A stretch of DNA of 64,000 nt from Planctomycetota bacterium (GCA_045863855.1 BTVV01000013.1:18834-82833); one strand, 5' to 3'; positions 1,526-6,742 are shown, numbered from the stretch's first letter. Made by a program: numbers and translations. Notes: generated by a model not told the origin, from the letters alone.

Positions 1526-3418
1526 CTACTCACCAAATGGGTTGGGCGCTTTGTACGACGCATCCAAAGCCATCAGAATTTCCGTGCTGCGGCGATGCCG
1601 GTCGCAAAGCGCGCGGAACGCATCGCGGTCCAGTAATTCATCCACATAAAGTTCGGCGCTAACCGGAGTTGGGATGCGTGCGTAGCGGCCCTCCCACTGC
1701 ACGTCCACTTGATCCGTGACATCTTTGCCCGCACGGTCGTAGACCGCGAATCGCGGTTGGTCCTTGAAGTACACGGCCAGCGTCTGCGCTTCCCAGCCCA
1801 GGAAAACCCACACCTTTGTCTTTTTGCGCTGCGTATCGAAGAACACGGGAACCATCATGCGAGCATCGCACGCGAGGTCGGGATCGTCGGCGCGGGCCGC
1901 CCAAGTCTCGAATCGGCCGATCGCGGACTCGAGGGCCGGGGCGTCGAACATCCGATCCAGATCCGCTTGCGGGAGTCGCCCCAAGACCTGTGGAAGCGCG
2001 AAATCGGCCGCGCGTGGCGCGGGAAGGCCCAACTGCCGTAGCGCCAATCCCGCCGCGCCAAGATGCAGGTCCATCACTTCCTGCAGTTCGGCAGCCACAT
2101 CCATCTCGACGGGTCCGGCTGCCGTTAGCCTATGCATCGAACGAAGCGCGTCGTCTCCGAAGGCTTCTCTGAGTGTACTTCGAACGGCCGCATACCCCAG
2201 CACTCGCCGCAAATAGTGCGTAGGCAGCGGCTCGATATCCAGCCGCGGCCGGATGGTGACCTTGGGCCGGTCGTTCGGCTCGGGCATGCCGCAGCCCGCC
2301 GCGGGAATTTCAAGCTGCTTGATCTGCGTCTCGCGCGCCAGCGCCATGAGGCTCTTGAATAGCTTCTCAAGATGCTTCGCGTAACGCGGCGAAGCCTCCG
2401 CGCGTTGGTGCTCCGGCAGTCGAGCGTAGGCGACCAGCGGTTCCAGGGACCACGCCACCCAGTCGTACCAGCCGCCATCCGGCTGCAGCGCCAATTTCCC
2501 GTTGCGAACGCGGGCGATCAGTTCGTCGATGAGGCTGAAGCCGTCCGGTATCGGGCGGTTCCCGTAGAGCTTTTTGACTAAATCCGTCTCATACGCGCGG
2601 GACGGCGGCAAGAACCGGTACATCGGAGATTCGGGTGCGAAGCGTCCCGCATCGAGTTGCCGCAGTAGTCCGCGCAAGTCGGGCGCGTCGGCCGAGAACG
2701 GATTGACCAGCCACTCCACCATGCTCAGGTAGCGTTCGTAAGTCGCCCGCACTTCGGGTTTGGCGTGCAGCGCCCGTGCGAGCGCCTCGACGCCGGCGAT
2801 CTCCTTCAGGTCGCTCTGCAGCATGCGATCCTGGCGGAAGATCCCGCGCAGTTCGTCGGACCACGTATAAAAGGAAATGGGCTTGGAACGAAGTTCGTCG
2901 CCGAGGAACTCTTCTTTAACCTGCTCGGAGCGTTCGCGAAGAGGCAGAGGGAGGTCCAGTCGCTGTCCGCCTAATTGCGCTGCGGCGGCCAGCGTGGCGG
3001 TTGTGGGCCCGGCGATTGTATTCAGATCGGAGACGAGTTCGCGCAAGACCCGCGCTTTGCCCGAAAACGTTCCGCAGCTGCCTTGTGCGGCAAGTTCGAC
3101 GGCCGCCACTAAGCCGTCGTCGAACTGCTTCGCTTTTTGCGCCAGTTCTGCAGCCGAAACGAACCGCTCGGCGCATTCGGACGCTTGAAGCGCTGCCGGG
3201 GCTGGGAAAAGCGCGCTAGAACCATATTCAGGCGGCAGGTCGATGCGGAGAGTCTGGGTAGTGGGATCGATCTGAGCGCGATAGTCATCGGCCTCGGTGC
3301 TGCCGCCCGCAGGCAGGCCTGCGCCCGGCGCGAGGGCAGGCGAAGCGCCGAACCAGCCTTTTATGCGATCCGCCCAAGAAGCCACGCGCCGTTCTCCAGG
3401 TAGCTTGGATGGAAGCAT
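1526..3418 (-). CDS. Hypothetical protein, distantly DUF3160-like
   Basis: ORF 1526..3784 overlaps the upstream gene, so the start is placed at ATG 3418; motifs PISFYTWSDEL and RETQIKQ...IEPLPTHY resemble DUF3160 motifs by eye. Confidence 0.5.
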   Translation of the reverse strand: MLPSKLPGERRVASWADRIKGWFGASPALAPGAGLPAGGSTEADDYRAQIDPTTQTLRIDLPPEYGSSALFPAPAALQASECAERFVSAAELAQKAKQFDDGLVAAVELAAQGSCGTFSGKARVLRELVSDLNTIAGPTTATLAAAAQLGGQRLDLPLPLRERSEQVKEEFLGDELRSKPISFYTWSDELRGIFRQDRMLQSDLKEIAGVEALARALHAKPEVRATYERYLSMVEWLVNPFSADAPDLRGLLRQLDAGRFAPESPMYRFLPPSRAYETDLVKKLYGNRPIPDGFSLIDELIARVRNGKLALQPDGGWYDWVAWSLEPLVAYARLPEHQRAEASPRYAKHLEKLFKSLMALARETQIKQLEIPAAGCGMPEPNDRPKVTIRPRLDIEPLPTHYLRRVLGYAAVRSTLREAFGDDALRSMHRLTAAGPVEMDVAAELQEVMDLHLGAAGLALRQLGLPAPRAADFALPQVLGRLPQADLDRMFDAPALESAIGRFETWAARADDPDLACDARMMVPVFFDTQRKKTKVWVFLGWEAQTLAVYFKDQPRFAVYDRAGKDVTDQVDVQWEGRYARIPTPVSAELYVDELLDRDAFRALCDRHRRSTEILMALDASYKAPNPFGE

Positions 3419-3456: not shown

Positions 3457-5100
3457 CTACTTTTTCTCCGCGCCGCCTTGGCCGTAGCGCTCCTGCATGG
3501 CTTTGCGAATCGCCTCCGTCTGGCCTTCGGCGCCCTCTTTGAACCACTTGTGCTCGGGTCGCGCCAGCAAGGAGTCGATCACTTCGTTGACGGCTTTGGC
3601 TTGATCCGCCTTCCCGTGTTCGGCGGCGTGCTTGGTGATCTCGCGCGCCTGCGGAATCAGGTGGATGTAAAAGCGTTCGGCTACTTCGAACATGCCGTGC
3701 CAGTGTGTGTAGTCCGGCGCCATCATAGAGGCGCCGTGACGCGCTCGCCGGCCTTCGTGATGCCACAAGTAAAACCAGGTCCACTCGATCTCTTCGTCGA
3801 AGTCCGTCTTTGTACGCAAGCCTTGCTTGAGCAGTTCATTCATGATCTGCATGCCGGGCTTGGCGAACTTCTCGTTGTAGAGCACGACCAAGTCATCGTA
3901 CTGCTTATAGAAACCGTTGATGTAATCCGAGGTATGGCAGTGGCTGCAGCCGTTCTTCATGCGCTGGCGCTTCTGGTCGGCCGTATCGGCGATGAGTTTC
4001 TTGCGCTCCTCTGGATCCGTCGATGTCACGATCTGGTGGTTGGCGTCGGTATCCATGCGCAAGCTGATGGGCGGACGATTGGTCCACGAAATGCGCTCGC
4101 CCGGATCGTGCGTGGCCGGCTCGCGCGTATTGGCGGACATGTGGCACGTCGCGCACGTCGGCGCGGCGTTGTAGTCTTTGCCCAGAACCCAGGAATCCGC
4201 GTCGAGGTTCATTTGCTCGCGCAGGTCGCGGTAGGCCACGCCGTGTTTGGACTCCTCGTAGATCTCTTTTTGAGGGTGATCCGGCCCCAGGTGGCACTTG
4301 CCGCAATTCTCGGGCTGCCTGGCGCGCCGCGGCGAGAAATCGTGACGGCTGTGGCATGCGCTGCACGAACCGCGGCTGCCGTCCACATTGAGCCGTCCGA
4401 TACCCGTATTGGGCCAAGTGGAGGCATGGAAAAGCGGTTTGCCGTCATCGTTCTTAACGATCTTCGCCATGGCTTCGTGGTTGGTCGGCTTACCGTCGGG
4501 TCCGGGTTTCAGATCGTCGACATTGATCATCCCGCCATCGGAACTTTGAAACGCCACTTTGCTGCCGTGGCACTGCTGGCATCCGCTGAAGGCGCTCGCC
4601 ATGCCGTTTACCGAAGTCACGTCGAACCCCGGCGTGGGCCCGTGCGGATTAAAGGTCGCGCGGTGGCCTTCGACGGTCTCGGCGAGGAAGTTATCGAGCG
4701 ACGCAAGAATATTCCCGCCCTTGGAATGATGACTATGCGCGAATTCCAGCGCTTCCTTCTGATGGCATTTACCGCAGTCGCGCGGCGTGACAACCGTGGC
4801 AAGCGTCTGGCCGAAATGCGCGAACGCGTCGGCATCGCCGGATTCCGCCTGGTGGCATTCCACGCAGCCGACACCTTTGCGTGCATGGGTGCTGCCTTCC
4901 CAGTGAGCCACGATGCCCGGCTGGGCTTGCTTATGGCAATCGACGCAGGTTTGTGACGAGGCCGGAATCGCGATGTGCGGCTTAGCCAGCCCCGCTTCCT
5001 CTTGCTTGCGCACGACTTCCATCCATTGAACGAAGATCAGCGAAACCAGGAACAGAATGCCCAGGATCCCGATGATCGAGCGCTTGGTGGTCAGTTGCAT
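3457..5100 (-). CDS. Octaheme cytochrome c, hydroxylamine oxidoreductase (HAO) family, N-terminal membrane anchor
   Basis: Eight CxxCH motifs (CVDCH, CVECH, CGKCH, CQQCH, CSACH, CGKCH, CATCH, CSHCH); HAO-type RHxFS, CHLGPDHPQ.EIY.ESKHG and APTCATCHM; C-terminal MMAPDYTHWHG. Confidence 0.92.
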   Translation of the reverse strand: MQLTTKRSIIGILGILFLVSLIFVQWMEVVRKQEEAGLAKPHIAIPASSQTCVDCHKQAQPGIVAHWEGSTHARKGVGCVECHQAESGDADAFAHFGQTLATVVTPRDCGKCHQKEALEFAHSHHSKGGNILASLDNFLAETVEGHRATFNPHGPTPGFDVTSVNGMASAFSGCQQCHGSKVAFQSSDGGMINVDDLKPGPDGKPTNHEAMAKIVKNDDGKPLFHASTWPNTGIGRLNVDGSRGSCSACHSRHDFSPRRARQPENCGKCHLGPDHPQKEIYEESKHGVAYRDLREQMNLDADSWVLGKDYNAAPTCATCHMSANTREPATHDPGERISWTNRPPISLRMDTDANHQIVTSTDPEERKKLIADTADQKRQRMKNGCSHCHTSDYINGFYKQYDDLVVLYNEKFAKPGMQIMNELLKQGLRTKTDFDEEIEWTWFYLWHHEGRRARHGASMMAPDYTHWHGMFEVAERFYIHLIPQAREITKHAAEHGKADQAKAVNEVIDSLLARPEHKWFKEGAEGQTEAIRKAMQERYGQGGAEKK

Positions 5101-5118
5101 GAAAAGTGACTCCCTGAA

Positions 5119-6168
5119 TTAGTGCGCAACGGCGCCTTCCCATACGGTTAGCCCCACGATGGCCAGCACGGCCACGACACCTACCCACACGCTGAATTCC
5201 GACTTCGGCCAGAAACGCCGAATCCAACCGTCCAGCAGCGGCCACATGAACATCGTGAAGAGGATAAAGCCCATGCTCAGCACCGCGGCGGTGCCCGGGA
5301 AAAGTTTCAGCCAGCGGAACGTAACGTAGAAAAACCATTCAGGTTTGATCACTTCGGGCGTGATGAGCGGATCGGCTTTAGGTCCCAGCTCGGCAGGAAA
5401 AACCGTAGCCAGAACGCTCAGCACAATCATCAGCACTAAGCCGATCATCAGCTCGGTATACAGATGGTCGGGAAAGAAATTGAAATGCTTGGGCTCGTTC
5501 GGCTTCTCGTCCTCAAATTGGAACTCCGTCACGCCCTGCAGGCGGAGCAAGGTGATATGTACGCCCAAGAGTCCGACGATCGCCACCGGTAGAGCCGCGG
5601 CATGCAGGATGAAGAAGCGTGGCAGGGTCTGCTGATTGTAAACCTCCCCGGCCAACAGGAGGCGTTTCATCAACGGACCGATCAGCGGGACCGTTTCGTT
5701 GATGTTCGCGCCGACGGTCGCGCCCCAGTAGCTGAGTTGTTCGTAGACGAGGCTGTAGCCGGTGAATCCCGTCATCAAGGTGCAGACGAGCAGGCACATG
5801 CCCACCATCCAGTTTAATTCGCGTGGCTTGCGGTAAGCGCCGGTGAAAAAGACGCGCATCTGATGCAGGATCACCGCCGCGATCATCAGCGTCGCGGCCC
5901 ATTTGTGAATGCTTCGGATATACCAGCCAAAGGCAACCTCGTGCGTGATATGGCGAACGGACTCATAGGCCCGGTCGGGCGACGATTCGTAATACAAGGC
6001 CAGCAGGATACCGGTGACGATCTGGACCACGAAGAGGTAAGCGGGTGTTCCGCCCAAGCAAAACCACCAGCGCCTCAAGTGATTCGGCACCGGCTCGTTG
6101 GTCATTTCACGGAGCTGTTCGCCGCGGATTGGGATACGCTCTTTGAACCAAGCGTTTATGCCGAACAT
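5119..6168 (-). CDS. Cytochrome b of a Rieske/cytb complex (b6 + subunit IV fused)
   Basis: Four heme-b His ligands (SIHKW..ILHQMRVF; ILHAA..GVH), WFCLGG, SYWGATVG, KPEWFF. Confidence 0.93.
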   Translation of the reverse strand: MFGINAWFKERIPIRGEQLREMTNEPVPNHLRRWWFCLGGTPAYLFVVQIVTGILLALYYESSPDRAYESVRHITHEVAFGWYIRSIHKWAATLMIAAVILHQMRVFFTGAYRKPRELNWMVGMCLLVCTLMTGFTGYSLVYEQLSYWGATVGANINETVPLIGPLMKRLLLAGEVYNQQTLPRFFILHAAALPVAIVGLLGVHITLLRLQGVTEFQFEDEKPNEPKHFNFFPDHLYTELMIGLVLMIVLSVLATVFPAELGPKADPLITPEVIKPEWFFYVTFRWLKLFPGTAAVLSMGFILFTMFMWPLLDGWIRRFWPKSEFSVWVGVVAVLAIVGLTVWEGAVAH

Positions 6169-6169
6169 G

Positions 6170-6742
6170 TCAGGATAACTCCTGGGGGCCGGCCACTTCG
6201 CTTGCCGACAGGCCTTCTAGTTCCACTTCGATGAATAGCAGTCCGTTCTCTATAAGGAGCGGATAGCGCCCCAATGACTGTCCTTTGGGCGGGCCTTCGG
6301 TACCCAGTCCGGACGGGTTGAAGACGCCATTGTGGCAGGGACAATAGAAGCGGTCGTTTTGAGCTTACCAGTGAACCTTGCAGCCCAGATGAGGACAGAC
6401 GCTGGAAAGCGCGATGAAATCCTCGACGGAGCCCTGCGCCTGCTGGCGGGCGATCGTCACGCCGGCGCCGGTTGGCGTGCGGAATTCCTTGGCGCTGCCC
6501 ATCGGAAAATCTTGTACGGTGGATACGAACATCCATCCTTTTGCGGTAGCACCTGACGGATAAAGGTAACGGGCAGCGAACGACGCGAAGGTTCCATAGC
6601 CGGCGACCAATCCGCCAGCCATGGCTAAGGCCGAAAGCTTGGCCAGAAAGTCTCGGCGCTCTGGTGCTTCAGGCTCTGCGTTCGAGTGAGAGGTCGTATT
6701 CACGTGATGGGCTATGCTCCAGCTCATGGCATCGGAAGGCAT
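6170..6742 (-). pseudogene. Rieske [2Fe-2S] subunit interrupted by in-frame TAA at 6365-6367 (nonsense mutation or sequencing error)
   Basis: Tat motif RRDFL plus TM helix, box I CPHLGC; after TAA the same frame reads AQNDRFYCPCHNGVF..GPP..LGRYPL to TGA at 6170-6172, 1 nt from the cytochrome b ATG. Confidence 0.88.

Follow-up and report, generated by a model that had tools for sequence, protein, structure and literature searches.

What might a Rieske protein, a cytochrome b and an octaheme cytochrome do together, when their genes lie side by side and no cytochrome c1 or f is encoded with them? This question is raised by a three-gene cassette on the minus strand of a 64,000-nucleotide stretch of DNA from a Planctomycetota bacterium (GCA_045863855.1 BTVV01000013.1:18834-82833), hereafter the window (Table 1). 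A preliminary description had rightly depicted three co-oriented, tightly spaced genes, with gaps of 1 nt between the Rieske and cytochrome b genes and of 18 nt between the cytochrome b and octaheme genes, and had proposed a quinol-coupled reductase of nitrogen oxides. The analysis reported here points to a cassette that probably carries electrons from menaquinol to nitrite, the readings with nitric oxide (NO) and with ammonium as the product being taken together. The narrower statement, that it is a menaquinol:nitrite oxidoreductase with NO as the likely product in this organism, is put forward tentatively, as slightly short of an even call.

The octaheme protein is, from its eight CxxCH motifs and its modelled fold, a member of the HAO family. 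It matches PF13447 above the Pfam cut-off (E value 1e-21), and its top solved relatives by sequence are IhOCC of Ignicoccus hospitalis (4qo5, E value 2e-41), Kuenenia HAOr (6h5l, E value 1e-22) and Nitrosomonas HAO (NeHAO). The AlphaFold model (pLDDT 91) has IhOCC as its top structural match as well (Z 28.4, root-mean-square deviation 3.1, 407 aligned residues); the HAO, HDH and HAOr chains score Z 19-21, and ONR and NrfA reach at most Z 9.2, with deviations of 6-8. The active-site heme motif of ONR and NrfA is CxxCK. All eight CxxCH motifs end here in His and the fold match to ONR/NrfA is poor, which places the protein outside that class. The single N-terminal hydrophobic helix is a predicted membrane anchor, in keeping with the membrane-anchored eight-heme protein described earlier.

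The most telling feature of the octaheme lies near its C-terminus, where the motif PDYTHWHG had been noted as apparently devoid of the Tyr that forms the P460 cross-link; the Tyr of PDY falling on the cross-link position had been named as the result that would overturn the idea. The alignment proposed for this purpose was made with a profile of 51 octaheme sequences against NeHAO (1fgj), thus at the sequence-profile level. Tyr467 of NeHAO aligns with His466 in the gapped register given by HMMER, or with Trp467 in the ungapped register. Tyr464, the Tyr of PDY, falls on Gly464 or Trp465 of NeHAO, two or three positions before Tyr467, and is thus off the cross-link position in both registers. Met459, His466 and Trp467 are found in 81 of the 81 relatives covered at these positions, and Tyr464 in 80 of them. 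The Asp-His pair aligned with Asp267-His268 of NeHAO, which we take to be the active-site pair of that enzyme, is kept; IhOCC and several distant relatives lack the His (His275). Reductive HAOs are described as carrying a His at the cross-link site (PMC12758564). With His466 or Trp467, and not Tyr464, at this position and the Asp-His pair in place, the octaheme reads at the sequence level as a reductive-type HAO.

The Rieske frame, read with X at an in-frame stop discussed below, matches PF00355 (E value 8e-9), and a profile made from 48 relatives finds b6f-type Rieske chains first (E value 1.5e-15). Its true start is likely the GTG at 6703, since L016, a relative 92% identical, does not keep the ATG at 6742 in frame. 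The Tat-exported Rieske protein of the preliminary description is recognized in the twin-arginine pair of the Tat motif RRDFL, both cluster boxes and the disulfide Cys pair, all invariant in 63 of 63 relatives. The same relatives all have Gly and Phe in box II at the positions of the Ser and Tyr of high-potential clusters, the absence of which had also been pointed out. In yeast, loss of this Ser or of this Tyr is reported to lower the Rieske potential by ~130 or ~65 mV, respectively (PMC12954380). Because both residues are absent here, the donor would have a potential near +100 mV.

This set of Rieske motifs is complete in the present assembly only if a TAA codon is read through. The stop had been overlooked in the preliminary description, which was correct about the three genes and their motifs and not about the intactness of the Rieske gene. 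The window was compared with four public runs, X1 and X2 (both possible sources of this DNA), X3 (from another study) and X15. In X1, a C is found at plus-strand position 6367, which restores a GAA codon, at a depth of 9.98 of 9.98. X3 also has GAA (depth 5.9 of 5.9, the contig ending 24 letters from the site), and both runs are otherwise identical to the window across the Rieske gene. X2 shows a contig gap over 6334-6369, and X15 does not cover the site. Among 63 orthologues, codon 126 is Glu in 56, Gln in 6 and Val in 1. The TAA is thus probably an assembly error or a rare allele; recoding was considered and dropped, as relatives and other runs have a sense codon. That it is a true nonsense mutation, which removes box II and leaves the cassette dead in this strain, is held to be improbable. 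In favour of such a loss, the stop does stand in the assembly, and X2 breaks exactly around the site, as would be expected of a mixed allele. Against it, X1, which is a possible source too, and X3 give GAA at full depth, the cytochrome b and octaheme genes are free of lesions, and no second lesion is found in the cassette. A dead copy would in any case concern this strain alone and have no bearing on the family.

The cytochrome b is indeed the fused b6 and subunit IV protein announced earlier, with cytochrome b6 as its top match in the PDB (E value 3e-51), a C-terminal part matching subunit IV, and both PF00033 and PF00032 in Pfam. All four heme-ligand His are present (His88/His102 and His189/His204), and the 14 residues counted previously between His189 and His204 are confirmed. 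The corresponding b6 residues are numbered Cys35, His86/187 and His100/202 (PMC7908018), so that Cys37, His88/189 and His102/204 of the present protein lie two positions off. Attachment of heme ci at Cys37 is predicted in this copy from that position. The claim of a heme ci Cys thus holds for this copy and not as a family-wide feature: among 72 relatives the position is Cys in 29, Ala in 37 and a gap in 6 (Cys in 29 of 66 covered). A functional link between the heme ci state and napA was also considered (Cys in 7 loci with napA and 19 without, Ala in 24 with and 11 without) and rejected, as the pattern follows lineage. At six loci (L028, L036, L039, L041, L046 and L078) the cytochrome b is ~490 aa long, with ~140 mostly hydrophobic residues inserted between the b6 and subunit IV parts; in the same six, the heme ci site is occupied by Ala and the Rieske protein (CPCHEG-F) is more distant, and the octaheme stays 66-72% identical.

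From the genes and their motifs, the fold, the missing cross-link Tyr, the synteny and the genome inventory, we infer a direction of electron flow, a Q cycle, a Rieske potential, a direct Rieske-to-octaheme transfer, a substrate and a product. Menaquinol would be oxidized at the Qo site of cytochrome b. One electron would pass via the two b hemes to the Qi site, in a proton-motive Q cycle, and the other to the low-potential Rieske cluster and thence to the heme chain of the octaheme, which, being tethered to the membrane, would stand in for cytochrome c1/f. Nitrite would be reduced at the uncross-linked heme 4 of the octaheme. In the present organism, nitrite may be supplied by a periplasmic NXR-type enzyme working as a nitrate reductase and NO may be removed by qNor, which would lead from nitrate to nitrous oxide (N2O) without NirK or NirS. 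The nitrite/NO couple is given as +380 mV, and the product of the cross-link-free HAOr is reported to be NO alone when the donor is at +55 mV, and ammonia when it is at -440 mV (PMC8042395). NO would be favoured because a donor near +100 mV resembles the +55 mV condition of HAOr, and because a qNor-type gene in the genome would provide for its removal. What the preliminary description says of a fixed complex of three subunits, of a Q cycle and of the substrate may be retained in this conditional form, and collision within the membrane would be as plausible as a fixed assembly. A prediction of the complex (L016 Rieske residues 15-165 with cytochrome b and octaheme residues 1-495, a 48-row alignment being used for each chain) gave 0.50, against 0.44 for a control with cytochrome b replaced, which is no evidence either way.

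The genome that holds the window (G000, 94% complete) has two MqnA/D-family matches, so that menaquinone genes are present and the earlier suggestion of a fit to menaquinol stands. It encodes a Tat-exported enzyme resembling the Kuenenia NXR (alpha subunit, 1713 bits against 7b04); this lies in a periplasmic NXR-type operon with a diheme gamma-like subunit (G000:C84:7271-15926, L097), either nitrate-reducing or nitrite-oxidizing. A C-terminal fragment at a contig start, presumably of qNor type judging from its motifs, is 100% identical to a 771-aa open frame in another genome (G043). The search of the genome for hzs, amo and nrf genes that had been advised was carried out: NrfA (PF02335), NirK, NosZ, HZS alpha, Hcp and NapA gave no match in G000, cytochrome d1 propeller matches were weak only, and AMO gave no match, its control being silent everywhere. 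As to the heterotrophic host proposed earlier, three carbon-fixation motifs were not found in the genome, in agreement with it; this is a crude test and its sole basis. Among 50 cassette genomes surveyed (of 61 first chosen, completeness unstated), NrfA is matched in 1, NirK in 4 and a NirS-like protein in 2. Since napA is adjacent to the cassette in 23 of the 50 and an NXR-type enzyme is found in 14 of the other 27, 37 of the 50 hold a periplasmic enzyme interconverting nitrate and nitrite.

G000 also carries a second Rieske/cytochrome b set (G000:C18:9501-24139, L099), in which the b6 and subunit IV-like parts have separate genes, ~8 kb away from the Rieske gene. The Rieske protein of this set keeps the Ser, and the next gene encodes a 1376-aa protein with eight CxxCH. 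A heme-copper oxidase is present too, and we read it and the second set as serving aerobic use. Elsewhere in the genome (G000:C7:19936-38981), two 10-heme proteins (588 and 1456 aa) and a 3-heme protein are encoded near a gene with a cytochrome c biogenesis motif.

A scan in which each species was represented by one genome returned at least 583 matching stretches, and the best 80 of these, 65-93% identical, are the relatives studied here. The best 80 of at least 583 belong to Planctomycetota, Gemmatimonadota, Acidobacteriota, Krumholzibacteriota, Omnitrophica, Anaerolineales and others; the closest among the matches listed are Planctomycetota. Conserved three-gene synteny had been set beforehand as a test, and Rieske and cytochrome b genes are in place beside the octaheme at 59 of the 65 loci evaluable for it (those with at least 2.6 kb of upstream DNA), which argues for a gene order kept by more than chance. 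Among 15 shorter loci, 3 have both genes, 8 have cytochrome b and 4 have neither. The phylogenies of the three genes that had been called for were built with FastTree on the 48 of 80 loci with three intact genes, besides a quick cytochrome b tree. They are largely congruent, with supported splits in conflict for 1 of 22 between cytochrome b and octaheme, and for 3 of 18 and 2 of 18 for the Rieske protein. The octaheme is present in 6 of 40 relatives of G000, all within its own family, hence a patchy distribution. Directly 3' of the octaheme, napA is found at 35 of the 74 loci where the downstream DNA extends far enough (36 of 80 overall), its product lying above the NCBIfam cut-off for L064, and a tetraheme gene is present at 26 of 86 loci searched, usually after napA.

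Some loci show other arrangements. The tetraheme after napA (L066:11962-12528 and 25 other loci) has no family match above cut-off, and a gene for a 190-aa protein comes next at 10 loci. At L068 (840-2531), an Hcp hydroxylamine reductase above the NCBIfam cut-off lies directly 5' of the octaheme, replacing the Rieske/cytochrome b pair. At L018 (2907-9599), the octaheme follows apparent heme-copper oxidase subunits and a porin-like gene, without Rieske/cytochrome b genes. At L091 (5907-8001), the 3' half only of cytochrome b precedes the octaheme and napA, another gene occupying the place of Rieske and b6.

Several observations weigh against a menaquinol-driven nitrite reductase releasing NO. 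As assembled, the Rieske gene is interrupted. Potentials deduced from motifs can fail, as Kustd1480, which lacks the Tyr, is still reported at +335 mV (PMC12954380). HAO proteins are trimers and Rieske/cytochrome b cores are dimers, and a fixed 1:1:1 complex is no given because of this mismatch in symmetry. The octaheme stands without adjacent Rieske and cytochrome b genes at 5 of the 65 evaluable loci, and with a partial cytochrome b at 1 of them. A qNor match was obtained in 12 of the 50 genomes that carry the cassette, 2 of these being among the 23 where napA is adjacent, with one partial query and other NO sinks left unsearched; at 12 of 50 only, NO fits poorly as a product for the whole family. 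Three genomes related to G000 (G004, G012 and G013) carry the octaheme with neither NXR-type enzyme nor NapA found, and 3 of 10 family members without the octaheme hold one or the other. The genome-level link is thus loose (0 of 3 carriers against 3 of 10 non-carriers, kin that are not independent). The scarcity of nirK, nirS and nrfA, counted in cassette genomes only, may also be a trait of these phyla. Finally, the Nitrospira cassette is tied in the published accounts to nitrite assimilation, and thus to ammonium.

This last point leads to the same wiring with a different product, nitrite being reduced to ammonium either in a respiratory pathway (dissimilatory nitrate reduction to ammonium, with NapA or the NXR-type enzyme upstream) or for assimilation as in Nitrospira. 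We regard ammonium as less likely than NO, and as a strong alternative. Nitrospira moscoviensis, which lacks NirA, is reported to grow on nitrite as sole nitrogen source with its cassette highly expressed (PMC6606698), and Caldithrix abyssi has been interpreted as forming ammonia through Nap and epsilon-Hao (PMC5317091). Of the napA-linked genomes, 21 of 23 have no qNor match and Hcp is found in 6 of 51 genomes, so that released NO or hydroxylamine would often be without a known sink. Also listed on this side is the sole NIR_SIR-family protein of G000, which by its motifs we take to be sulfite reductase-like. On the other hand, a donor near +100 mV is close to the condition where HAOr is described as having stopped at NO, and G000 does hold a qNor fragment. 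Among the recurrent neighbours of the 82 loci, neither an ammonium transporter nor a glutamine synthetase cluster was conspicuous, as judged from translations, with no dedicated scan. The Nitrospira octaheme, of 446 codons, is moreover likened to the present one by layout alone.

Much less probable, in our view, is an octaheme that serves mainly as a relay, a c1 substitute passing electrons for example to NapA via the tetraheme, or as a scavenger of hydroxylamine or NO, nitrite not being its physiological substrate. About one locus in two continues with NapA and the tetraheme, and the recurrent neighbours include no other quinol dehydrogenase; 39 of the 74 evaluable loci, as well as the window, have no napA that could be the target of a relay. 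The Hcp gene directly 5' of the octaheme in L068 and the heme-copper oxidase-like operon before it in L018 also count on this side. HAOr is reported to reduce NO and hydroxylamine faster than nitrite in vitro (PMC8042395), and the in vivo role of the Ignicoccus octahemes has been termed speculative (PMC4429474). His275 is absent from IhOCC and several distant relatives; Asp274-His275 is invariant in all 82 close relatives, which counts against such a role. An oxidative HAO, whose electrons from hydroxylamine would run backwards through Rieske and cytochrome b into the quinone pool, is very improbable. It has for it the HAO fold, the many database names reading 'hydroxylamine dehydrogenase', the retention of Tyr464 in 80 of 81 relatives and the fact that the cross-link position was placed by a sequence profile. 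No Tyr lies on Tyr467 in either register, reductive HAOs are described as having a His at that site (PMC12758564), cross-link-free enzymes failed to oxidize hydroxylamine, and G000 has no AMO match (control silent). Nitrite reduction fed by menaquinol remains the preferred reading.

Table 1. Features of the Rieske/cytochrome b/octaheme cassette, in window coordinates.
Feature	Position	Strand	Remarks
Rieske gene	6742-6170	minus	190 codons counted from ATG at 6742; one in-frame TAA as assembled
Twin-arginine (Tat) motif R29-R30 (RRDFL), then membrane anchor	6653..6658	minus	RR in 63/63 relatives
Rieske box I CPHLGC (cluster Cys/His and disulfide Cys)	6380..6397	minus	Invariant in 63/63
In-frame TAA, codon 126, between boxes I and II	6365-6367	minus	GAA in two other runs
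Rieske box II CPCHNGVF	6320..6343	minus	Gly139 and Phe141 at Ser/Tyr positions of high-potential Rieske proteins, 63/63
Cytochrome b gene	6168-5119	minus	349 aa; b6-like N-terminal part fused to subunit IV-like part
Cys37 in CLGG, predicted heme ci (cn) attachment position	6058..6060	minus	Aligned with b6 Cys35
Qo-site motif PEWF	5332..5343	minus	PEW in 70/72 aligned relatives
Octaheme gene	5100-3457	minus	547 aa, eight CxxCH, predicted HAO fold
N-terminal helix, residues 3-35, predicted membrane anchor	4996..5094	minus	Model helix; sole hydrophobic segment, hydropathy peak 9-27
Asp274-His275	4276..4281	minus	Aligned with NeHAO Asp267-His268; invariant in 82/82
Met459 to Trp467	3700..3726	minus	Met at NeHAO His459; His466 or Trp467 at Tyr467 cross-link position

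The surroundings of the cassette agree with the absence of an adjacent cytochrome c1/f gene noted earlier. A Pfam scan of the window neighbours places the gene 5' of the cassette in the photolyase family, and the long downstream open reading frame (window 1526-3400, minus strand) has no Pfam or NCBIfam match and does not recur beside the 82 loci. No cytochrome c1/f recurs among the neighbours of these loci either, which sets the cassette apart from bc1 and b6f complexes in the strict sense. A promoter and terminator scan of the window stayed at chance level. Regulatory sites were scanned against mononucleotide shuffles in the regions upstream of 62 Rieske genes, where FNR-type, sigma-54 and NtrC-type patterns remained at the shuffle level. 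CRP-like palindromes with at most one mismatch precede the Rieske gene in L072, L082 and L033 (3 of 62, against a shuffle maximum of 2), and a gene just 5' of the Rieske gene in L028 (2441-2911) presumably encodes an Rrf2-family-like regulator. Three short contigs of run X15 match the cytochrome b and octaheme genes exactly (depth 2-3.6); contigs from an RNA library being no proof of transcription, they were not used.

More broadly, it is possible, although rather short of an even chance, that hundreds of uncultured Planctomycetota, Gemmatimonadota, Acidobacteriota and others without NirK, NirS or NrfA have in this cassette their missing dissimilatory nitrite reductase. The cassette would then encode a three-gene Q-cycle enzyme, its c-type subunit doubling as the terminal reductase, and would give nir-independent N2O formation with NXR and qNor, and proton-motive periplasmic nitrate respiration with NapA and the tetraheme. 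In that case, the natural Cys/Ala variants at the heme ci site would offer a test bed for the role of this heme. Surveys that count only nirK, nirS and nrfA would miss a large group (at least 583 stretches) if nitrite reduction is indeed driven by menaquinol. The frequent 'hydroxylamine dehydrogenase' label would also be misleading, and in this cassette a Rieske/cytochrome b complex would be coupled directly, and in compact form, to a catalytic heme protein. Whether NO or ammonium is formed decides between nitrogen loss and nitrogen retention.

The same layout has already been published for Nitrospira and Caldithrix abyssi, and so has the proposed mechanism. The cassette is thus of a known kind, found in a further planctomycete, and the Q-cycle-coupled reductase of the preliminary description cannot be called new, the same wiring having been proposed in these published accounts. 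What is added here is the corrected reading of the Rieske gene, the finding that more than half of the family has lost the heme ci Cys, the signature of a low-potential Rieske protein over 63 relatives and the two genomic settings, napA-linked or with NXR and qNor. In Nitrospira, an octaheme gene (OCC, called ONR) behind Rieske and cytochrome b genes (petBC) is proposed to encode a nitrite reductase coupled to the quinone pool (PMC6311188, PMC6606698, PMC5767232, PMC12342949); a review describes this octaheme as being without biochemical characterization. No biochemical study of a Rieske-cytochrome b-octaheme cassette was found in the literature covered, which largely excludes subscription papers. 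NITMOv2_1278-1281 of N. moscoviensis are given as amtB, Rieske, cytochrome b (1047 nt) and octaheme genes in a row (PMC6606698). Judging from this gene table, the three genes NITMOv2_1279-1281 have the same order and strand as here, with no separate c1/f and a cytochrome b gene of nearly the same length (1050 nt here). The octaheme gene differs (1341 nt, against 1644 nt here), as does the context: amtB and a nitrogen-assimilation cluster, with an ammonium-forming reading, in Nitrospira, and the photolyase-family gene and the unmatched reading frame in the window.

In Caldithrix abyssi, likened here by description, Cabys_2558 (Rieske), 2557 (cytochrome b) and 2556 (epsilon-Hao) are likewise adjacent and the HAO is Tyr-less; direct transfer from Rieske/cytochrome b to the octaheme, with generation of proton-motive force, was proposed for it (PMC5317091). 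Unlike the window, where no nap genes adjoin the cassette, this organism has a full nap cluster with NapM and NapGH (PMC5317091). No named Nitrospira or Caldithrix sequence surfaced among the matches; a mostly Nitrospirota cluster came second by model features (0.96), a lead only. HAO-like octahemes have also been suggested as stand-ins for nirK/nirS in heterotrophic Phycisphaerae, in passages that make no mention of the Rieske pair (PMC11266412).

Anammox bacteria offer a related association: Kuste4569-4574 of Kuenenia stuttgartiensis combine a b6-like cytochrome b with an HAO-like octaheme, and nitrite-to-NO reduction was proposed (PMC12954380). This set is described as comprising six genes, in which b6 and subunit IV are encoded separately and an NAD(P) oxidoreductase and a further multiheme cytochrome are included, against three genes and a fused cytochrome b here. 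Its Rieske protein keeps both Ser and Tyr, with a potential of +303 mV (PMC12954380), and that of the window has neither. With three genes only and no HZS alpha match in G000, the cassette falls outside the anammox R/b-3 type. The octaheme itself resembles IhOCC (4qo5) and Kuenenia HAOr (Kustc0458, 6h5l) in that the cross-link position is not occupied by Tyr. A Met at the His459 position is common to IhOCC and the present protein, but IhOCC has a Val where His275 stands here, and HAOr is soluble with a diheme partner, unlike the predicted membrane-anchored protein of the window. No report was found of IhOCC or Kustc0458 being encoded beside a Rieske/cytochrome b pair. The remaining comparison is with cytochrome b6f, from which the cassette departs by its fused b6 and subunit IV, its lack of cytochrome f and the Ala found in place of the heme ci Cys in more than half of the relatives, and which it resembles by its b6-type His spacing, the Cys at the heme ci position in this copy and its b6f-like Rieske protein.

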